Notes: generated by a model not told the origin, from the letters alone. 64,000 nucleotides of DNA from an uncultured Spirochaetota bacterium (GCA_963781885.1 CAWAHW010000007.1:160001-224000); one strand, 5' to 3'. Counted from the first letter of the stretch, positions 8,307 to 22,200 are shown. Numbers and translations are program-made.

Positions 8307-9480
8307 TCAGCCGGAGAGCCGCTCGTAAATGGCGGCGAACTCCTCCGCGACCGTGGAGAAAACGGCGAGGATGCGCGGGTCGAAGTGGGAGGGCATCGTG
8401 CGGCCGTCGCCTTTCGTGATGATGGCGACGCTATCGGCGTGGGTAACCGCAGGCTTGTAGCGGCGCGGCGAGCGCAGCGCGTCGTAGACGTCGGCGACGG
8501 ACATGATCTGCGCGGCTAGCGGGATGTCGTCCCCCGCGAGCCCCCGTGGGTAGCCGCTGCCGTCGCGCCGCTCGTGGTGCGCGTGCGCGATCTCCGCGCC
8601 CATGCTGATGAAGCCGTTGCGCGGGTAGTTCTCCTGCACGCCGTGGAGCGTGCGCGCGCCGATGGTCGTGTGCGTCTTCATGATCTCGAACTCTTCAGGG
8701 GTGTGACGGTCCGGGCTTCAGGAGGATGAGATCCGAGATGCCCACCTTTCCAATGTCGTGCAGGGGCGCCGCGTTGTACAGGTCGCGCACGAAGGGCTCG
8801 GTGATCCTGCCCTGGAACGCGGGCTCGTCGCGGAGAGCGTTTCCCAGCGCGAGGCAGTATTCACGGACGCGCCAGATGTGCGTCCCCGTTTCGTCGTCAC
8901 GGGACTCGGCGAGCTTCACCATGGCGAAGATGGTCGCCAGCTGCGACTCGGAGATCTCCTTCACCTTCTCGTTCACGAGCTGCTCGAGGTAGCGGTTGTA
9001 GCGTTCCAGCTCCGCCTGGGCGCGGCGCAGCTTCAGGTGCGTCTCCACGCGCGCCTCCACCTCCTCGATCTGGAACGGCTTCGTGATGTAGTCCACGCCG
9101 CCGCGTTGGAAGGCCTTCACCTTGCCCTCCATCTCCGTGAGGGCGCTGAGGAAGATCACGGGCACGTCGCGCAGCCGGGCATCCTCCTTCATGAGCCGGC
9201 AGACCTCGAAGCCGTCCATCTCGGGCATGCTGATGTCCAGGAGCACGAGGTCCGGGGGATCGCTCGCCGCGGCCTTCAGCGCGAGCCTGCCGGACGGCAC
9301 GGGACGCACGCGGTAGCCGCGCTCGCCGAGCATGCGCGCGAGAAGCGTGAGGTTCGCAGGCGTGTCGTCCACGACGAGGATGTTGCCCCGCGTGGGGGCG
9401 GCAGGTGTGTCGGCCAAGGCTCTACCCGCCGGCGAGCATACCCTGCCGACGGCGCCGCTGTCAAAGATGGCGGGCGGCAC
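8307..9480 (-). pseudogene. RpfG-type REC + HD-GYP c-di-GMP phosphodiesterase, split by a +1 frameshift near 8703 (possibly a sequencing error)
   Basis: ORF 8695..9480 has REC and PLHDIGKVGI..ILLKPG. It continues in another frame as [11 protein letters not shown]...[11 protein letters not shown] (8307..8681). True start may be TTG 9417. Confidence 0.85.
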
Positions 9481-10027: not shown

Positions 10028-10327
10028 CCGCGAATGCCACGGATTACAAATGCCGCGGAACTGCGCGGAGTACCGTGCAAGGTACCGCGGCCGGTGTGGC
10101 CGCGAATGCCACGGACTACAAATGCCGCGGAACTGCGCGGAGTACCGTGCAAGGTACCGCGGCCGGTGTGGCCGCGAATGCCACGGATTACAAATGCCGC
10201 GGAACTGCGTGGAGTACCGTGCAAGGTACCGCGGCCGGTGTGGCCGCGATTGCCACGGATTACAAATGCCGCGGAACTGCGTGGAGTACCGTGCAAGGTA
10301 CCGCGGCCGGTGTGGCCGCGATTGCCA
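10028..10327. repeat. Intergenic tandem repeat, 72-bp unit, about 4.2 copies
   Basis: Units start at 10028, 10100, 10172, 10244 and 10316 (partial): CCGCGAATGCCACGGATTACAAATGCCGCGGAACTGCGCGGAGTACCGTGCAAGGTACCGCGGCCGGTGTGG. Only a few substitutions between units, no spacers. Confidence 0.97.
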
Positions 10328-10359
10328 GATCGGTGACCGGCTGATACCATGGCGGCATC

Positions 10360-12962: not shown

Positions 12963-13340
12963 ATGTCGACGAGCGAGTCCGAACTCGCCCAGATGCGCAG
13001 AAACCTGGAGGAAAAAGCGGCGCGGCGCGCGCAGGCGCTCCAGGAACGCCTTGGCGAAGCACGGCGTGATTTCACGAACATCGTGGGACACATCGTGGAG
13101 ACGTATCGACCGGTGCGCATCCGCCAGTGGGGTTCCCTTGTCGATGGAGCCCACTTCCAGGAATGGTCCGACATCGATATCGCCGTGGAGGGTATCACGT
13201 CCGCCGAGGTTTTTTTTGCAATCCTCCGCGACGCGGAGGCCATGAGCAGGTTCGCCGTGGATCTGGTGCAGATGGAAACGATCCATCCCGCATTCGCCGA
13301 ATCCATCCGGGAACGCGGCAGGATTGTCTATGAGCGATAG
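12963..13340 (+). CDS. Minimal nucleotidyltransferase (MntA-like antitoxin)
   Basis: GS...SDIDIAVEG and VDLV motifs, 125 aa, overlaps the downstream HEPN gene. Confidence 0.85.
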   Translation: MSTSESELAQMRRNLEEKAARRAQALQERLGEARRDFTNIVGHIVETYRPVRIRQWGSLVDGAHFQEWSDIDIAVEGITSAEVFFAILRDAEAMSRFAVDLVQMETIHPAFAESIRERGRIVYER

Positions 13341-13815
13341 TACGGCGATACTCGTCGGCGAGATTCAAAGGGTCTCTTCCGTCCTGTTGGACGTCGACGC
13401 ACGATTGGAGACTTTTCGCGGCAAGGAACTCGCCCTTCTCGGCCGAACAAACGTCACCGCGGTGTTCGTCGCCCAGGTGCTGGACAACTACTGCACGGCG
13501 CTTGAGACTCTGTTCCTGCGCATCTCTCAGTTCTTCGAGAACAATCTCGTGGCCGATCGCTGGCATGCCGACCTTCTGGACAAGATGATGCTCCACGTTC
13601 CCGATGTCCGGGAACGGGTCCTGTCAGACGAATGCGGTCGCCTGTTGCAGGAGCTGCTCCGTTTCAGGCATTTCAAGCGATACTACTACGAGCTGGATTT
13701 CGATTGGCTCAAGCTTGACTACCTGCTTTCCGTGTACGAGCGCGCAAAACCATTGGTGCAGCGTGATCTCCTGGCATTCTCTGATTTCCTTGGGAGGCTG
13801 GCAAACACCAACTGA
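13330..13815 (+). CDS. HEPN-domain (HepT-like) ribonuclease toxin
   Basis: Y..LE..F.RI, WH..LL..M, L.EL.RFRHFKRYYY (variant of RX4HXY). Coupled to the MNT gene. Confidence 0.8.
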   Translation: MSDSTAILVGEIQRVSSVLLDVDARLETFRGKELALLGRTNVTAVFVAQVLDNYCTALETLFLRISQFFENNLVADRWHADLLDKMMLHVPDVRERVLSDECGRLLQELLRFRHFKRYYYELDFDWLKLDYLLSVYERAKPLVQRDLLAFSDFLGRLANTN

Positions 13816-14048: not shown

Positions 14049-14744
14049 CTATTTCACCTTGATGAAGTAGTTGACCGTCACGCTCTTGGACCTGGTTTCG
14101 GAACCGACGCGGGCCGCCACCAGTGACATTCCGGCGCCGTTCGACCAAGGCCCGTTCACCGTGGTGACCATCCCCACATGGGGCGGATCATTTGTGATGG
14201 CCGTCCAGGTCCCGGTCAAGCCGAAATAGCTTCCGCCGGTTGGGGCATAGGGGCTGGGGGCAGGGATTCCGTGGCCGGCGGACGTGTCATCCAGCCAGTT
14301 GTGCATATGGTCCTGCAATTGGTCGGCTTCATAAGTCCCGATGGCGCTCTCGCCAGCCGGATCCTGTTTGCCGTCGCTGCGTCCATTGTTCTTGCCTCGC
14401 AGGAAGACGCCCCTGAGGTCGGGCAGGGTGGATTGCCCAGTAGCGGTCTGGTAGGTGCTCGGGGCGGCGCTGCCGTCAGCAATGAGCCACAGGCCTGCGC
14501 CGCACTGGGCGTCCATCTGAGCCTGGGTCAGGGTCGAAGCGATGATCGTGCCGATTGGCACGGCATTGTCAGCGGCTTGGGCTTGCAGCGCGTTGATGGC
14601 GGTCACAAGAGTAGTGAGATAGGTGTCCATTGCGCTCGCGTTGATAGCGCTGTTAGCCGTGAAGGTCGGGGCTGAAACCGCCTGGGCCCCGAGCGAGGCT
14701 GTCATTCCTAACACTGCAATAAAAACAATGGCTGATCGCTTCAT
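14049..14744 (-). CDS. Secreted protein with a phage tail-collar/tail-fibre domain
   Basis: Sec signal (MKRSAIVFIAVLGMTASLGA), VPIGTII, W..ADG, LPDLRGVFLRG, G..E.DQLQDH.H, ETRSKSVTVNYFIK. Confidence 0.8.
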   Translation of the reverse strand: MKRSAIVFIAVLGMTASLGAQAVSAPTFTANSAINASAMDTYLTTLVTAINALQAQAADNAVPIGTIIASTLTQAQMDAQCGAGLWLIADGSAAPSTYQTATGQSTLPDLRGVFLRGKNNGRSDGKQDPAGESAIGTYEADQLQDHMHNWLDDTSAGHGIPAPSPYAPTGGSYFGLTGTWTAITNDPPHVGMVTTVNGPWSNGAGMSLVAARVGSETRSKSVTVNYFIKVK

Positions 14745-14819
14745 GCTACCCCCCGCTTTTCCAACTGATTGATGAACTCATTCATTTTGTTTGCCATAGT
14801 CTCCTCCTGTATTGTGCCC

Positions 14820-16274
14820 TTATTGCCAGGTGGCTTGGTCCCAGTTCGACGAGTCCCACTTTCCTGGTCCGCAGATATTGAACACGCCGCTCAGGATCGT
14901 GGAATCCTGCCAGTTTGCTTGATGTGCGATTGCCGTGATTGTCAGACTTCTGCTGGTACCTTGATCTCCTAACGCAGCAGATATCGCCCCGGTGTAAGTC
15001 GCTCCCGAAACGTCAGGAGGTGATGCCAGTGAGCCCGTCGTGGACGTGGAATAGGTCATGGTTGCTGTGCCGCCGCCGCCGTTTGCGCAGGCCAGCGTCA
15101 CGGTCTGTGCCGCCGCATAATATGTCGCCAGGGGCTGGACACCACTAAAAGTCGGCGTCGACAATTGGAATGTGTAGGGCACTGATGTCGTGAGGGGGGA
15201 CTGGCTCGTACCTGTCCCGACAAAGGCTACAGCCTTAAGCGTGACGCTACCGGACGGCAAAGCACAATAGAAGTTGCTGCCGTTCGTAATCAGGTAGGTT
15301 TTTCCTGGCGCACTGGCAATTGGATACGGCGGAGTAGGCGTTGCAGTCAGGAGCACCGGACTGGATGTCGGGTCCGGAGCAGTCGTGCCGTCAATGGTAA
15401 ACGCGATTGCCGCGTTTGTGGTGGTTGAGGAAATGCTGAAGATGGGCTGCGGAGTCACCGCAGAGAGAAAGAGAGGGCCACCGTTGACCGTTATGCTGGG
15501 CGCAGCCGGTAGCGATGTGGAGAAGTTTGCGGTCACTATGCTTGAATTGGTCATTCCTGTGACGACAGCCATCGCCCGAATCATACCGGTCCCGGCGCTT
15601 AAGAAATTGAATGCAAAGGGGGATGTGTACTTGGTAGTCGTTGCACCGACTGCGCCAACAGAAGGCGCGGAACCATCAACAGTATAGTAAATCGTTGCGC
15701 TCGGGTTGGAGCATGTGATTGTGACAGTGGTAATTCCGCTCGGAATGCACTGATTGTTGCCGCCGCTAAAAGCCGGCATGGGCGCCGAATCGATGCCAAT
15801 GCCCGTGAGGTTGAAGGAGAAAGTCGAGGCGGACACGTCGTTCGTGGCGAAGACGGCACTGGCGGCTTTGGCCCCGCTCACATCGGGTTTGAATGCAATG
15901 GTAAACGTGGCGCTGGCCGATGGCGCCAGGTTGGCGGGCGGCGGGGCCTTGTATGAAAAGCAGCCCGCATTGGCGCCCGCACACGTGCTTGAAGATATCG
16001 TAAGGGCAACCTTGCCGGTATTCTTTACCGTGAAGCTGGTAGTCGCCGCGGGATCACTGACGCCAACGGTTCCGAAATCGTATGAACCGCCATTCGCAAT
16101 GGCCGTGGAAGTGGCGTCGACGACGGTGACTTCGATCTTCGATGAAGCGGCAACCTGTCCCATTGTCCTGACAGCTTGCGTCAACGGGTTTGGGCACGAT
16201 ACCAAAACAGCAAGGAGAATAAGAACTACCGCTCTGCCGATGTGCCACGCGCTCAGGCGTTTGATTTCTCGCAT
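14820..16274 (-). CDS. Ser/Thr-rich surface lipoprotein with an Ig-like (choice-of-anchor D/ASH-like) domain and chitobiase/Fn3-associated repeats
   Basis: Lipobox LVSC, YDFG.V..FTVKNTG..L, three repeats of the IYYTVDGS.P type, C-terminal WDSSNWDQATWQ. Confidence 0.8.
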   Translation of the reverse strand: MREIKRLSAWHIGRAVVLILLAVLVSCPNPLTQAVRTMGQVAASSKIEVTVVDATSTAIANGGSYDFGTVGVSDPAATTSFTVKNTGKVALTISSSTCAGANAGCFSYKAPPPANLAPSASATFTIAFKPDVSGAKAASAVFATNDVSASTFSFNLTGIGIDSAPMPAFSGGNNQCIPSGITTVTITCSNPSATIYYTVDGSAPSVGAVGATTTKYTSPFAFNFLSAGTGMIRAMAVVTGMTNSSIVTANFSTSLPAAPSITVNGGPLFLSAVTPQPIFSISSTTTNAAIAFTIDGTTAPDPTSSPVLLTATPTPPYPIASAPGKTYLITNGSNFYCALPSGSVTLKAVAFVGTGTSQSPLTTSVPYTFQLSTPTFSGVQPLATYYAAAQTVTLACANGGGGTATMTYSTSTTGSLASPPDVSGATYTGAISAALGDQGTSRSLTITAIAHQANWQDSTILSGVFNICGPGKWDSSNWDQATWQ

Positions 16275-16292
16275 TTTTGGTTTTCCTTGCAG

Positions 16293-18366
16293 TTAGAACC
16301 ACACCACGCTGCCGCTGTCCACCTCGGCGGCCCTTGTTCCGGAAGTTCCCGCCTGGGCAAGCTCGGCATATTTATCCGCCGCCTGGGGGTCGATCTGGCG
16401 GACCTTGTTCAGGGCGGATGCAGCGTCATCTTTCTTCCCCAGAGCGGCAGCGGCTCTCGCGATATTGACATAAAGCCCCGCGTTGTCGGTCACCTGCTTC
16501 GCGGCTTCCTGGTAATATGCAAAGGCGCCCGCCGGATCGGACTTGACCATCGCGATGTTGCCGAGATTCACCAGCGCGGAGACCGATCCCGCCTTGGCTG
16601 CGCCCTGCAGATCTCGCAGTGCATCGTCGTAGCGGCCATATTTTGCATACAGCACGCCCCGCTTGTTCAGGGCATTGCCGACCGCGGGGCCGTTGACCGG
16701 CAAAGCGCCCATTTCCGCGATCCGCGCGCCAAGCTCGGCGTCCACTGCCTTTGAAAGCTCCGTTTCAAACGCTGCTCCGACCTTGTCGCTCGGCGGCAGC
16801 GCAACGCTCGTGCCGTCAGCGGGCAGGCCCATCGGCGCATAGGTCTTCCAGGAGTCATGCATGGGGTAGAAGGCGGCGGCCTGCCGGGACGAGGCGTCGC
16901 GCCACTCCTCGGCGCCTTTCTTCCAGATGTCGATGAAACCCGAATCGCGCATCGTCGTTTCGATGGGCACCCAGAACCTTGTCGCCCTGGAAGATGAGAT
17001 CATTCTGATCCATCGCCCGCGCCATCGCCTCGTCGCGCGAGATACCGAGGTCAATGGCGATAAGGATGTGACCAGGTATGGTGATGAAGGCCGTCTCGAC
17101 ACCGGCGGCCTCGAGGCAGGAGGCGTACAGCACCGACAGGTCGGCGCAGTCGCCTGCGCGGAAGGTAAGGGTCTGCCGGGGGAACTTGAGAGAGTCGACG
17201 GCGTCAGGATCGAGGACCGTCTGCTCGAAGGGGCGGGTGGTGCTCAGCATGTAGCCTATGCCGTAGGTCCCGAGGCCCTCATGAACCGCAATCGCGGTCT
17301 GGAGGTTTTTCGGAAGCTCGGGGTTGCGCTTGCTCTTCACCGTGGCCATGAAGTTCCCGGCCAGGTCGAGGACCCAGGGGTCCCTGCTCGAAACAAAGGC
17401 GGCCGCCTTGCGATCGTCGCTCCATGTGAGAGCGTTTCGGTCATAGACGACGACAGTCACGCTGCGGCTCTGGGAAATATCGACGTTATACTCCAACGAG
17501 ACTTCGCCGGTCACTTTGGTGGCTTCGGTGATGTCGAGGATGCGGTCATTAAAAAGGGCGTAGAGCGGCACTTCGATGGAGTTGCCCGGCTCCAGCCTGG
17601 CGATGGTTGCGCACTCCTTGGGAGCGTCCATGTACTGCTTGATGATGAAGCTGACCCGGACGTTACTGGCAGTCATCTTGCTCGTATTTGAGATCTTCGC
17701 CGTGCCGACGGGGTTCTGGTCGTAGAAGGAGCGCAGGACCGGGAAAACGCTCTTCATGCTGATGGAAAGCAGGTCGAGAAGTCGAGGCTTTTCCGCCTGG
17801 GCGGGTGCAGGGAACGAATAGTTGAGACCGACGACCCCGCCGACTCCGCCGTACATCCCCATTTTATAGAGAGCTGCAATGTCCAGCCGGGCGCCAAGGC
17901 TGGGGCTCAGTTTGTATCCCAGTCCCAGCCCGGCCTGGGCGACGGCGTATGCCGCGCTCTGGCCTGAAGAAAGGATGCCGAAAGCTCCACCGACATCCAG
18001 AAAGCCACGGAAAGAGAGGCCCCCTCCGATGTCGAGGCCGCTGCTTGCTCCCGCCAGGAGAAGAATCTCGTTTATGGAGCCCGCTACATCAAAGCCATTG
18101 TAGGGCAGGAATCCTGCGTAGTTATACCCGGCCCCCAGGCGGAGCGCGAGGGGAAAGGACAAAGGAAGGGCATATTCCGCGGTCAACTCCCCGCCCCATG
18201 CAGTGGAGAAGAGCTCAGAGTCCGTGCCATCGACTGCGATAAGTGGAAGGGCAACTGAGGGAGAGACGGTTATCGACCATGGTGATCTGGGTTGAGCGGG
18301 AGTCTGGGCCGATAGAGCGCCGACTGCCGCCAGTGCGATCGCAACTGTCCAAAATATTCGTTTCAC
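16293..18366 (-). pseudogene. Exported protein with N-terminal beta-barrel-like region, transglutaminase-like domain and C-terminal TPRs; +1 frameshift near 16976 (possibly a sequencing error)
   Basis: GTG 18366 with GGAGG RBS and signal peptide, GDCADLS..CLE..G and PGHI motifs. KV(c)WVPIETT joins ORF 16855..18513 to 16293..17102, which has TPRs (NKRGVLYAKYG, VNLGNI). Confidence 0.8.
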
Positions 18367-18700: not shown

Positions 18701-21700
18701 CTACGGTTCTTCGTTCTCCGTCGACAGTTCCGCCTGCTTCAAGACAAGTTGCGTCGCATCTTCGGAAAGGTCAGGCGGGTAACCATACCGCGCCAGGAGT
18801 CGCCGCACCTGCCGACGCAGGTCTGCGCGAACCGATTCGCGCTGCGACCAATCCAGCTTGGGCAGTTTCTTCACCATCTCTGCCAGTTCGCGCGCCATCA
18901 GGCGCAACGTGTCATTCTCCATGACTTTGCGGGCCGACTCGTTGTCCGCAATAGCATCGTAGAACGCCGTCTCCTCGGTGCTGAGGCCAAGCTCCTGACC
19001 GCGGCTTTGCACCTCACGCACCCATTTTGCGAGATCCAGCAACCGCGTGATCATTTCCGCGGTAGTGATGGCCTTGTTCGTATAGCGCATCATTGCATCT
19101 TCAAGGGCCTCGCGGAACTTTCGGCTTTGGACCAGGTTGGTTCGCTCCGCGCTGCGAATCTGGTCCGTCAGCAATTTTCGTAATGTCTCCAGTGCCAGGT
19201 TCTTTTGTTCCAGCGCTGCCACGCGCGAAAGGAAGTCCTCTGAAAAAATGTCGAGCCGGGCGTCTTCAATACCCGCCGCCGCAAAGAGGTCGATTACCTC
19301 CCCCGCCTTCACGGCTCCGCCGACAATTTGCCGGACCGCGGCGTCGATGTCTGCGTTCGCCCTCACAGGGGCGCCCGATTCGCGGTTGTCCGCAAGCCGC
19401 TTGCGAATCATTGCCTGGACGCGCTGAAAGAATGCCAGGTGCGGCGTGATGATTTCCGCTTCAGGGTGCGGCACGACGAGGGCAAAGGCAATCGATAGTT
19501 CCTTGACCATCGATTGGAAGCGCGCCCATCCATCACTCTGCTTGAAAACGTGATCCGCGGCGTCCGCGTAGACTCCCAATACCTTGGCAGGCGCTGCATT
19601 GAGGGCCTGGCTGTAGTGGAATTCGTGGAAGAACGAGCGCAACTTCTCGAATGCGGCGTTCATCACCGGCACCGCGTGGTCCTGGACGCTTTGCACAGCG
19701 TCGCCTCGTCCGCCTGCCTGTGTATACGTTGCGAGGGCGTCGGCTAGTTGGTCCGCCAGGCCGAGCATATCCACAATAAGCCCGCCCGGCTTTTCGCCAT
19801 ACACCCGGTTCACGCGGGCGATGGCTTGCATCAGGCTGTGTCCGGCCAGCGCCTTGTCCAAATACATCGTATGCATCGGGGGGCAATCGAAACCAGTGAG
19901 CCACATGTCGCAGACGATCACGAGCCGAAATTCGCTTTCCGGGTCCTTGTACCGAAGAGCCAGCGCCTTGCGCGCAGCCTTGCTACGAACGTGTTGGAGA
20001 ATCGGCTCCTCGTCGTTTGGGCCGCCGGTGATCACCACCTTCATCACTCCTTTGTCGTCGTCCGAGTGGTGCCACTCTGGTCTTATCCTGCGGATCTCCT
20101 CGTAAAGTCGCGCGGCGATGTCGCGGCTCATCGTCACGACCATCGCCTTGCCTTCCATTGCGGTACGCCGTTTCTCCCAATGCTCCACGACAAAGGCAGC
20201 GGCGCGTTCTATCCTCTCGGGGGCACCAACCAACGCTTCAAGCGGGATGCGCACCGCGTCATCCAGGTCCTCGCCCGAGCTTGACGCCTTGGCCGCCGCG
20301 TGAAGCTCGGCCTCCGCGGCGACAGCCCCCGCTTCGTTCACCGTCAGCTTGATGATCCGAGATTCATAATAGATCGGAACGGTCGCGCCATCGTCCACCG
20401 ATTGTCGGATGTCGTAGATGTCGGCGTATTGCCCGAATACCCGGGGTGTGCTTTTGTCATCGCGATCGAGCGGCGTTCCGGTGAAACCTACGAAGGTGGC
20501 GTTTGGCAGCGCCTCGCGCATCCAGCGGGCACCGCCTTCTCTGAAACCGTACTGGCTGCGGTGCGCTTCATCGGCCATCACTACGATGTTTGCCCGTTCA
20601 CTGATTGTCCCTTGCTCTTCCGCGAATTTGTAGATAGTCGTGAAGATTACTCCGCCTGAAGCGCGGTCCAGCAAGGCCTGGAGATCCTCTCTGCTTTCCG
20701 CCTGCACAGGGTCTTGCCCTAGGAGTGCCCGTCCTCCCGCGAAAGTGCCGAAGAGTTGGTCGTCCAGGTCGTTGCGGTCCGTCACCATAACGATAGTCGG
20801 ATTGGCCAGCGACGGTTCGCGTATCAGTGCCCCCGCGAGCATCAACATCGTGAGAGACTTGCCGGATCCCTGCGTATGCCACACCACCCCGCCTTTCCCG
20901 GCCTGTGTTGTGATGTTCGCACCGGCAGGGGGCTTCAGGGCCGCCAAAACTTTCGACCGGGTCTGACGCACAGCGCGGAACTGGTGATAGCCTGCCACCT
21001 TTTTCACGATGTTCCCGCGCTCATCTTCGTCGAATACGACGCATGACCGCAGGTAGTCGAGCAGCGCGACCGGTTCAAACAGGCCATGCACGAGAGCCTC
21101 CAGCGTCGGCTCACCTCCTGTCGCCGGACGCCAGGGCATGAAGCGTTGCCTCCCACTCGTGATCGAGCCAACCCGCGTCAAGAAGCCATCACTTGCAACG
21201 AGGATCATGTTCGCGACGAACAAGTCCGGCGCATTTCGCGTGTACCGTCCCAATTGATCGATTGCCCTCGCCAAGTCGGCCGCCTGGTCTGTCGGGTCCT
21301 TCAGCTCGATCACAGCCAGCGGCAGGCCGTTCAGGTACACGATCAGATCCGGCCGAATAACCTTGCCATCTGCGGCAGGCACCGTCAGTTGACGAACTAC
21401 GAGGAAATCGTTATTGGCCGGGTTGTCAAAATCCACCAAGCGCGCCTTTCCGCCACGGTTCTCGCCCGTCGCGGCATTGCGGTATTCGACATCAACGCCA
21501 TTTGTCATCAAGCCGTGCATCCAGCGGTTGTTCTCAATCAGCGTTGGATGCGGCGGACGCTGAACTAAACGCACCACTTGTTCAATGGTGTCAGGTGACA
21601 AGTATGGGCTAATACGGCGCATAGACTCCGCCAATCGGTGATGTATGAGAAGGTTCATGTGCGGTTCATTACCGTGGGTTGCTTGCCGGATTTCCACGCC

Positions 21701-21781
21701 ATACTCGACGGCGTAGCCGACCGCCTCAAACCAAGCTGCTCCGGATTCCTCTATCAAATACTCTGTTGGAGCAGTATTCAT
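18701..21781 (-). CDS. hsdR: Type I restriction enzyme R subunit
   Basis: Nuclease motif RPD..YLNGLPLAVIELK, WHTQGSGKS, DEAHRSQY, GFTGTP, MWLTGFD, QAIARVNR. Intact, 1026 aa. Confidence 0.95.
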   Translation of the reverse strand: MNTAPTEYLIEESGAAWFEAVGYAVEYGVEIRQATHGNEPHMNLLIHHRLAESMRRISPYLSPDTIEQVVRLVQRPPHPTLIENNRWMHGLMTNGVDVEYRNAATGENRGGKARLVDFDNPANNDFLVVRQLTVPAADGKVIRPDLIVYLNGLPLAVIELKDPTDQAADLARAIDQLGRYTRNAPDLFVANMILVASDGFLTRVGSITSGRQRFMPWRPATGGEPTLEALVHGLFEPVALLDYLRSCVVFDEDERGNIVKKVAGYHQFRAVRQTRSKVLAALKPPAGANITTQAGKGGVVWHTQGSGKSLTMLMLAGALIREPSLANPTIVMVTDRNDLDDQLFGTFAGGRALLGQDPVQAESREDLQALLDRASGGVIFTTIYKFAEEQGTISERANIVVMADEAHRSQYGFREGGARWMREALPNATFVGFTGTPLDRDDKSTPRVFGQYADIYDIRQSVDDGATVPIYYESRIIKLTVNEAGAVAAEAELHAAAKASSSGEDLDDAVRIPLEALVGAPERIERAAAFVVEHWEKRRTAMEGKAMVVTMSRDIAARLYEEIRRIRPEWHHSDDDKGVMKVVITGGPNDEEPILQHVRSKAARKALALRYKDPESEFRLVIVCDMWLTGFDCPPMHTMYLDKALAGHSLMQAIARVNRVYGEKPGGLIVDMLGLADQLADALATYTQAGGRGDAVQSVQDHAVPVMNAAFEKLRSFFHEFHYSQALNAAPAKVLGVYADAADHVFKQSDGWARFQSMVKELSIAFALVVPHPEAEIITPHLAFFQRVQAMIRKRLADNRESGAPVRANADIDAAVRQIVGGAVKAGEVIDLFAAAGIEDARLDIFSEDFLSRVAALEQKNLALETLRKLLTDQIRSAERTNLVQSRKFREALEDAMMRYTNKAITTAEMITRLLDLAKWVREVQSRGQELGLSTEETAFYDAIADNESARKVMENDTLRLMARELAEMVKKLPKLDWSQRESVRADLRRQVRRLLARYGYPPDLSEDATQLVLKQAELSTENEEP

Positions 21782-21990
21782 GGCGTGGCTCCTGCTTGAT
21801 TTGCCTTCTCAATTGTTGCCAACTCGATAGCAGTCTCCCGATAGAGTTCAGGGTCAATAGCATGCAAAACTTCGCTGCTGTGCCGCGCTTTTCCACATAC
21901 CTCGACCATTCCGAATTGGGTGTCTATCAAGCGGTCTTCTTCAATACTTCGAACTGGTCGCGGAGAGGGAGTTCGCTCCGCAAGATTCAT
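21778..21990 (-). CDS. Small ORF or 3' remnant of a deleted gene, coupled to hsdR
   Basis: 70-aa ORF whose TGA overlaps the hsdR ATG (ATGA). No family recognised. Confidence 0.4.
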   Translation of the reverse strand: MNLAERTPSPRPVRSIEEDRLIDTQFGMVEVCGKARHSSEVLHAIDPELYRETAIELATIEKANQAGATP

Positions 21991-22002
21991 GCGCGGATCC
22001 TT

Positions 22003-22200
22003 TCAGCGCATCGACTCGACGCAAAGCGCTTCCTGGCGGGACTCAAAGGCATCCGAAATATACTTGAGGAAGAGCAGACCAAGGACAACGTGCTTGTATT
22101 CGGCGGCATCCACCGTGCCGCGCAACGTGTCCGCGGCAGCCCAAAGCTTGTCTTCGAATCCTATGCCTGTCTCATCCGTTTCCGGTTTGGCCACGATCAC
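22003..22200 (-). pseudogene. hsdM: Truncated type I methyltransferase M subunit (N-terminal ~55 aa only)
   Basis: [39 protein letters not shown] is the HsdM N-terminus. GGAGG RBS; stops after 65 aa. Confidence 0.9.

Follow-up and report, generated by a model that had tools for sequence, protein, structure and literature searches.

Why would a bacterium equip a phage-like tail fibre with a signal peptide? This question is raised by three genes in a 64,000-nucleotide stretch of DNA from an uncultured Spirochaetota bacterium (GCA_963781885.1 CAWAHW010000007.1:160001-224000, hereafter the window), which is part of contig C7 (160001-224000) of a genome of 4.64 Mb in 7 contigs. A sequence-only reading of this DNA had proposed that a fibre with tail-collar motifs, a lipoprotein ending in a tryptophan (Trp) repeat and an outer-membrane protein with a transglutaminase-like core form a single surface system, in which the exported fibre docks on the lipoprotein and is assembled or cross-linked by the third protein. 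The observation itself is confirmed: the three genes are co-oriented on the minus strand at 18366-16293, 16274-14820 and 14744-14049, and are separated by gaps of 18 and 75 bp. The whole interpretation is partly supported. The genes make up two modules and not a single obligate trio. In module B, a gene with a C-terminal WDxxxWDxxxW motif is followed by one whose product has a signal peptide, then a docking segment of the form FxxGxxAxAxxVNxNF, and a head that varies. Module A consists of a barrel/transglutaminase-like/TPR gene followed by a lipoprotein gene, and just one of its 10 copies in this genome lies beside a fibre. Given the pairing of genes across genomes and a structural model of the complex, we consider it probable that the Trp-tail lipoprotein tethers a phage-derived, exchangeable, adhesin-like fibre to the cell envelope.

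The features of the fibre gene and the lipoprotein gene are listed below, with signal peptides called here and throughout from the sequence and a hydrophobicity heuristic.

14049-14744, minus strand: short, predicted secreted T4 gp12/gp37-like fibre of 231 amino acids, with signal peptide, docking loop, helix and collar/needle head (profile matches)
14685-14744, minus strand: predicted Sec/SPI signal peptide, residues 1-20, also present in the three closest homologues
14637-14663, minus strand: docking loop F28-A36, the predicted contact of each of the three protomers with the Trp tail (model interface and family alignment)
14616-14630, minus strand: divergent MDTYL (V/M-N-x-N-F in the family), where the trimer helix begins; of these residues M39 alone belongs to the modelled interface
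14568-14639, minus strand: helix of residues 36-59, predicted coiled-coil stalk (model, H16-39 of the mature chain)
14052-14561, minus strand: collar and needle head with HxH (H146/H148), a putative metal site (profile matches)
14820-16274, minus strand: lipoprotein stalk of 484 amino acids with lipobox C27, choice-of-anchor D/Ig domain, Fn3_assoc/CHB_HEX_C repeats and Trp tail
14823-14858, minus strand: C-terminal WDxxxWDxxxW tag, W473, W478 and W483 (sequence and model)
16194-16205, minus strand: lipobox LVSC (sequence)

The identity of both proteins was largely as the sequence-only reading had described. Every quoted fibre motif is present in the 231-residue protein, which matches PHROG 523 (tail-collar fibre) with an E-value of 7.6e-12. 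A 40-row profile of the fibre family also matches the T4 tip structures 1OCY (E 6.3e-9) and 2XGF (E 1.3e-4) as well as 1PDI. The window fibre does not reach the Pfam Collar model PF07484, which fibre partners at two other loci (L160 and L311; L numbers are our own locus names) do pass. Foldseek with the fibre returned no match at E<=0.001. In the head, H148 is invariant and H146 is kept in at least 90% of the 40 family rows; the trimer is a modelled one. The lipoprotein has the expected lipobox cysteine (LVS-C27), choice-of-anchor D domain and Fn3_assoc/CHB_HEX_C repeats, and it ends in WDSSNWDQATWQ. This tail is the sole W[DN]xxxW[DN]xxxW among 60,091 six-frame open reading frame (ORF) segments of the genome. 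The cysteine is kept in the homologues P0315 and P0316, and homologues P0315-P0317 retain a Trp tail. Within the genus, the Trp pattern gave 4 matches in 20 other genomes versus 7 for a reversed control.

The sequence-only reading had suggested searching for genes with a C-terminal Trp tail and asking whether exported fibre genes follow them, and the outcome of this search supports the joint. Our forward sample comprised 120 listed tail-pattern matches from genome contigs, mostly non-spirochaete, for which the regular expression describing the dock was fixed before the loci were read. An in-frame stop closes 54 of these matches, and 41 of the 54 are ORFs of at least 40 amino acids. The dock motif is present in the next gene for 23 of the 41 Trp-tail ORFs versus 0 of the 79 remaining listed matches (0/13 short ORFs and 0/66 internal occurrences). 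A hidden Markov model (HMM) of the dock adds one further next gene (L116) and three loci with a dock no more than 5 kb away (L056, L089 and L105). Those dock-positive listed loci that have named records include Gammaproteobacteria, Deinococcus, Myxococcales/Polyangiaceae and Magnetococcales.

Closer to the window, the DNA pattern of tail plus stop has matches in 22 of 401 genomes of the phylum. Among the 30 loci read, 7 are Trp-tail lipoproteins in other genomes, of which 6 are directly followed by a gene with leader and dock; for the remaining one, a collar fibre is encoded two genes upstream. The reverse search gives the same picture. With the window's own copy counted, the dock profile has 10 matches, spread over 8 of 92 genomes from the order, and 9 of these 10 adjoin a gene whose product terminates in an aromatic triplet with spacing 5; the one miss, L313, is a partial dock match (E 5.7e-6) without a tail gene. 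More broadly, the profile matches 9,196 protein clusters at 50% identity, and a hydrophobic leader precedes the motif in 140 of the 147 top hits that carry it. The tail gene and the next dock gene are therefore paired in both directions.

What varies is the head. Among 12 partners from the 120-match sample there is one S74 head and one Gly-rich head, and among 10 spirochaete-type partners there are two Collar heads, two S74 heads (one below cut-off) and six without assignment. The dock, or socket, segment itself matched no Pfam model in the partners scanned, and its profile had no significant match in the PDB. The number of docks per tail varies as well: at L154 (G430:C64) four dock-bearing fibre genes stand in tandem behind one Trp-tail lipoprotein gene, and at L089 several dock genes surround one tail gene. 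Small Trp/Phe-tail lipoproteins at L159:2215-3685 and L155:11327-12799 have other genes in the place of the dock gene, which we take to be sigma-factor-like and anti-sigma-like.

A direct physical joint between the two proteins is supported by modelling. The sequence-only reading had called for a multimer model of the fibre trimer with the Trp tail, and we modelled three mature fibre chains with the last 32 lipoprotein residues, using alignments made for this analysis. The complex scored 0.63 versus 0.00 for the best control. At least 97% of contacts are shared between model runs, and the predicted local distance difference test (pLDDT) value of the partner is at least 66. In the model, W21, W26 and W31 of the tail contact mature fibre residues 8-16 and 19 in all three chains, and each Trp makes close contacts with two protomers. 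These results support binding of the tail by the fibre but do not show it. Together with the gene pairing, they support the central proposal that a Sec-exported, phage-derived fibre is docked on a lipoprotein through its Trp tail.

Even if the cassette is genuine in general, the copy in the window could have decayed, such that its fibre no longer docks or trimerises. The suspicion arises from the segment just after the docking loop. In the three closest homologues the leader is followed by F-x-x-G/N-x-x-I-S-A-x-x-M/V-N-x-N-F. The N-x-N-F positions are kept in at least 90% of the family alignment, and the window fibre has D-T-Y-L there. This divergence is confirmed as real by the same sequence in a short-read contig. 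Decay is also suggested by a truncated methyltransferase-like ORF nearby and by the distribution of the fibre, which among 60 related genomes was matched in just one (G039), after a lipoprotein ending in a W/F/F triplet. However, the frame, leader, docking loop and head of the window fibre are intact, and its three closest homologues are 50-68% identical over the full length. Moreover, the changed residues lie mostly outside the modelled interface, and it was the window's own sequence that passed the model.

The closest relative of the locus bears on decay from both sides. A metagenome scan for fibre relatives yielded 8 loci, and of the 5 gene maps read, four look phage-like whereas one, L282, is informative. 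It carries a homologue of the barrel gene (64-66% identity), two lipoproteins of which the second has the tail (47%), and then an S74 fibre. Behind this intact fibre, at L282:5900-6200, lies a broken remnant of the collar fibre with an internal deletion. The locus is a snapshot of fibre-head replacement, and its broken copy of the same fibre gene speaks for decay; however, the L282 partner is likewise divergent at the N-x-N-F positions. On balance, we think it quite improbable that the window fibre has lost its function.

The third gene raises a different issue. Its features, and those of the protein it encodes, are as follows.

16293-18366, minus strand: outer-membrane barrel/Ig-like/transglutaminase-like/TPR protein of ~690 amino acids, co-located with the cassette and not obligate
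17812-18279, minus strand: predicted 8-stranded OmpA/NspA-like beta-barrel (orthologue model and alignment)
16956-17154, minus strand: putative catalytic C407, H433 and E (W-V-P-I-E) of the transglutaminase-like core (conservation in homologues by regular expression)
16296-16673, minus strand: TPR repeats and a conserved C-terminal RAA...W tail (114 of 120 homologues)
16975, no strand: extra base that splits the gene in the assembly, a probable sequencing error (short-read contig)

The barrel, the GDC..PGH motif that follows it and the TPRs are all present as the sequence-only reading had described them, but that reading had missed the extra base at 16975, which splits the gene. One short-read contig (run X1, depth 2.2, possibly from the source sample) lacks exactly this base, and among nine paralogues in the genome seven are in one frame or only partly visible, whereas two are also split. 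Because of this contig and because most paralogues are either unsplit or cut, the frameshift is probably an assembly error and the ~690-residue gene intact. A genuine pseudogene was judged less likely, given the single low-depth contig without the extra base.

The model of an intact orthologue (48% identity over the N-terminal part) shows an 8-stranded barrel together with a beta-sandwich, an alpha/beta core and the TPRs. Its barrel superimposes on NspA with a Z score of 18.0 and a root-mean-square deviation of 2.8 A over 147 aligned residues, and OmpA is matched by Foldseek with an E-value of 3.9e-6. In OmpA-like barrels both chain ends are on the periplasmic side, and the enzyme part would therefore be periplasmic. 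The core residues are well conserved by regular expression in 120 homologues (Cys in 118, Gly-His in 112 and Glu in 110). The Pfam model PF01841 scores 15 bits (E 0.031) over the Cys region, under its cut-off of 23, and the transglutaminase core is not among the top fold hits of the whole-protein model, where barrel and TPR fill the list.

Might this protein be a dedicated assembler that covalently joins fibre and lipoprotein, as the sequence-only reading had envisaged? The conserved Cys, His and Glu would suit such a role, and the reading's expectation that the three families co-occur elsewhere is borne out in part, in that all three gene types are found together at four other spirochaete-type loci (L154, L282, L307 and L312). 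In addition, homologues of the barrel gene and of the fibre come from one 9,156-bp contig, on which they may be adjacent. Against these observations, a member of the barrel family lies near 0 of the 120 listed, mostly non-spirochaete tail-pattern loci, and one lies within ~7 kb in just 3 of 16 extended spirochaete loci with a Trp tail or dock (L154, L307 and L312). Of 92 genomes from the order, 63 carry the family, at up to 18 matches per genome, whereas 8 have a match to the dock profile. No tail or dock gene was found in 17 fetched stretches holding paralogues and orthologues of the barrel gene (the DNA downstream of one paralogue was not covered, and one stretch ends at a contig edge). Furthermore, LapG, the bacterial relative that has been characterised, is a protease, which cleaves an adhesin rather than cross-linking one (PMC3032545). 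It is thus very improbable that the transglutaminase-like protein is an integral cross-linker of this system. The trio's recurrence in spirochaetes is explained by the tag having come to sit on genes that belong to module A operons, and the joint is independent of the barrel gene.

The barrel family is instead tied to lipoprotein genes. The gene after a family member encodes a lipoprotein in 18 of 21 evaluable loci (judged by eye, with many of the loci orthologous). The nine paralogues in the window's genome (C7:14631, C1:99468, C1:528230, C1:207282, C6:298228, C4:139034, C4:142627, C4:23001 and C2:323951) mostly abut a lipoprotein gene. An HMM for a shared N-terminal tether in these lipoproteins ranked the window lipoprotein first and the others low, with one training row mis-registered, and 15 of 137 candidate lipoproteins lie no more than 8 kb from a copy of the barrel gene. 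The barrel protein is likely to be a periplasm-facing cysteine enzyme or a chaperone for the downstream lipoprotein, and the joint does not depend on it.

We therefore return to the tethering of the fibre by the Trp tail and propose how it might work. Both the fibre and the lipoprotein would be exported by their own signals, as their sequences suggest. The fibre would then trimerise, a step consistent with its T4 homology, with the S74 chaperones on other heads and with the model. In the modelled joint, the N-terminal loop F28-A36 of the three chains would make a three-fold socket, with one Trp plugged between each pair of chains. Finally, the Ig/Fn3 stalk may space the head from the membrane, such that the collar/needle tip, presumably exposed at the surface, could bind a surface glycan or protein and act in adhesion.

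One could argue that the Trp tail has just a transient periplasmic role, serving as a template or pilot that nucleates the trimer before the fibre is released or passed to a secretion system. The single Trp-tail lipoprotein ahead of four fibre genes at L154 would fit this idea, as would the many tail carriers that are just ~50 amino acids long, those that lack a lipobox, and the fact that an outer-membrane route was not found. However, the tail in the window and at several other loci ends long Ig/Fn3 stalks (484-1,171 amino acids, counting the window copy), which are better suited to display, and the phage precedent described below is a permanent joint. We consider a purely transient role rather unlikely. 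A lead to the export route is possible in the neighbours of the tail genes. Trp-tail lipoproteins in other spirochaetes often stand directly after an exported CsgG-domain protein (L154, L155, L158 and L159), an exported Peptidase_C14 (caspase domain) protein directly precedes them at L309, L311 and L314, and these preceding proteins end in an aromatic residue as barrel proteins do.

Several points weigh against tethering by the Trp tail and should be kept in view. No dock gene was found in the DNA covered for 14 of the 41 Trp-tail ORFs, which include probable non-genes and loci with 300-bp flanks. The loci from related genomes are not independent, and the figures are counts rather than a statistical test. 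The window fibre's own dock segment scores 5.5 bits in a leave-out HMM versus 41-47 for its closest homologues. The mark by which the model score is judged, which 116 of 157 solved complexes attain as against 2 of 215 mismatched pairs, holds only roughly here, as our own alignments and the 3:1 stoichiometry are unlike the calibration set. Some tail carriers lack a lipobox (L307 and L312), and we found no means of passage across the outer membrane. Nor was sequence homology to the joint of phage Pa223 detected, with no HMM match to its fibre gp60 and a Foldseek E-value of 1.9 to 9nxk. In addition, tethering and its rivals are not fully exclusive, and our confidence in each should be read with this in mind.

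Where might such a joint have come from? On viral contigs, 81 of 120 listed matches of the tail motif lie 57-70 amino acids from a C-terminus. All 11 of the viral proteins of this kind that were tested match PHROG 5107, whose label is amidase. Cultured-phage homologues of this protein are annotated as tubular tail B, stabilisation, neck or head-closure proteins. The motif is carried by Sulfitobacter phiGT1 gp15 ('tubular tail B') and Myxococcus Mx8 p52, and two other fetched homologues have degenerate forms. The amidase label is probably a mis-annotation, and the members stand at the tail-hub position (for example L324:11362-12960). Within the DNA covered, significant dock-domain genes occur in 3 of 120 listed viral loci (L173, L211 and L216), and the starts of cultured-phage fibres resemble the docking loop as judged by eye. 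A tblastn search of cultured phages with one dock segment gave no match, and the viral hub profile had no significant match in the PDB. Short-tailed phages, which have the same motif in their tail-hub protein, are the likely source of the joint; the direction, from phage to cell, is presumed.

Three phage proteins (L216, L211 and Mx8 p64, the last at L326) combine a dock or dock-like segment with a signal-peptide-like leader, and two of the three lie just downstream of the hub gene with the Trp motif. The premise of the sequence-only reading that phage tail fibres lack signal peptides was therefore too strong, given that two phage dock proteins show hydrophobic leaders; it is also at odds with the phage-like MAT (mosaic adhesive trimer) fibres of Bdellovibrio, which have signal peptides (PMC10769870).

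The phage link also brings up an anti-phage function, in which the fibre masks a phage receptor or the hub-like Trp tail soaks up the fibres of infecting phages. The tag matches the phage hub motif, the head is homologous to receptor-binding tips, and the locus sits in a lower-GC stretch, flanked by a nucleotidyltransferase/HepT-like pair on one side and a type I restriction subunit on the other. Nevertheless, the neighbours in other spirochaete gene maps are mostly exported proteins and regulators (by eye), many heads are not phage-like, and an exported tag would miss phage fibres, which assemble in the cytoplasm. In our judgement there is little chance that defence is the function of the pair. 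We also rejected a prophage remnant or tailocin gene as the nature of the fibre gene, as none of the other 41 long ORFs of the window matches a head, tail or connector PHROG at E<=1e-8; this agrees with the statement of the sequence-only reading that no other phage genes are nearby.

The surroundings of the locus are as follows. The GC content of the locus is 0.56-0.61 versus mostly 0.62-0.70 elsewhere, and the lower-GC stretch spans 13-24 kb of the window. Just downstream of the fibre, at 12963-13815 on the plus strand, lie a nucleotidyltransferase gene (PF18765, slightly under cut-off) and a HepT-like gene (PF20797), a pair likely to be a toxin-antitoxin module. On the other side, an intact type I restriction R subunit occupies 18701-22200 on the minus strand and is preceded by a 65-residue ORF at 22003-22200, which presumably resembles the start of an HsdM methyltransferase; no HsdS gene was seen near the R subunit in the window. 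At 8307-9480 on the minus strand one gene, which we take to be response-regulator/HD-GYP-like, is split across two ORFs, probably by another indel of the assembly. Four near-identical repeats of ~63 bp at ~10030-10340 lie upstream of a sensor kinase and encode repeated peptides in several frames. Promoter and terminator scans performed no better than chance level.

Given these results, we lean slightly towards a broader proposal, in which many phyla reuse the joint of short-tailed phages as a 12-residue, enzyme-free sorting tag. Any exported protein ending in WDxxxWDxxxW could capture any Sec-exported trimer with a matching socket at its start, thousands of heads would be exchangeable in such a surface-display system, and in spirochaetes the tag would sit on lipoproteins served by an undescribed family of barrel/cysteine enzymes. 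Known routes for holding adhesins include sortase, exosortase, the type IX secretion system and autotransporters. If the proposal is true, anchoring by a non-covalent peptide tag joins this list, and the socket domain of ~9,200 protein clusters gains a testable function. Reuse of a phage tail joint on cells would also suggest how fibre heads swap between genomes, and a 12-mer that binds the base of a trimer could be a compact tool for protein engineering. The locus itself contributes a long-stalk version that has a T4-like head and whose socket, although divergent, passes the model. It also draws attention to a multicopy family of outer-membrane enzymes in spirochaetes that is linked with lipoprotein genes. 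Its analysis has also yielded the exact five-spaced motif in podovirus hubs and the separation of the transglutaminase-like module.

Comparison with known systems places these components. As a molecular joint the arrangement has a phage precedent, whereas as a bacterial anchoring system it appears to be undescribed; in the open-access literature, supplements excluded, we found no paper on a WDxxxWD-type tag or two-gene cassette, or on the barrel/transglutaminase/TPR family. The barrel protein resembles LapG and the BTLCP family in having a transglutaminase-like Cys/His core, in being exported and in being encoded beside surface proteins (PMC3032545). It differs in its third conserved acid, which is Glu (110/120) rather than the Asp of the Cys-His-Asp triad of BTLCP, and in adding an outer-membrane barrel, an Ig-like domain and TPRs. 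It matches no BTLCP model in Pfam or NCBIfam, and no LapD-type receptor or type I secretion system adhesin is present among the adjoining ORFs, no genome-wide search having been made. The fibre shares with T4 gp12/gp37 a homologous head domain and the HxH motif, but it is predicted to be exported, is very short and lacks the baseplate-binding part.

The MAT fibres of Bdellovibrio are phage-like trimers on the bacterial surface with signal peptides, variable tips and, in some cases, S74 chaperones, and the authors state that the anchor of the fibres awaits identification (PMC10769870). These fibres have a beta-rich domain of ~130 residues after the signal peptide, whereas the window fibre has ~40 residues, namely a loop of ~15 and a helix of 24, before the collar. 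The window fibre also differs in that the gene next to it supplies a Trp tag as its partner. The podovirus hubs of PHROG 5107 carry W-D-x3-W-D-x3-W ~60 amino acids from the C-terminus, and in some cases a protein with the dock segment comes next. Unlike the bacterial pair, they are virion proteins assembled in the cytoplasm, where the motif's role is itself presumed.

The closest functional parallel is phage Pa223. Three Trp residues in the Fiber Attachment Loop of its hub gp59, arranged with pseudo-three-fold symmetry, are inserted at the base of the fibre trimer gp60, at a ratio of 1:3 (bioRxiv 10.1101/2025.06.11.659172). The modelled joint of the window likewise places three Trp residues at the base of a fibre trimer, and a gp37-like tip is common to both. 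In Pa223 the Trp spacing is 7 and the loop is internal to a beta-propeller hub, whereas in the window the spacing is 5 and the motif is a free C-terminal tag on a lipoprotein. Because the spacing differs and homology was not detected, we take the resemblance as one of function and claim no common family, and by analogy we suggest that the joint in the window works like that of Pa223.

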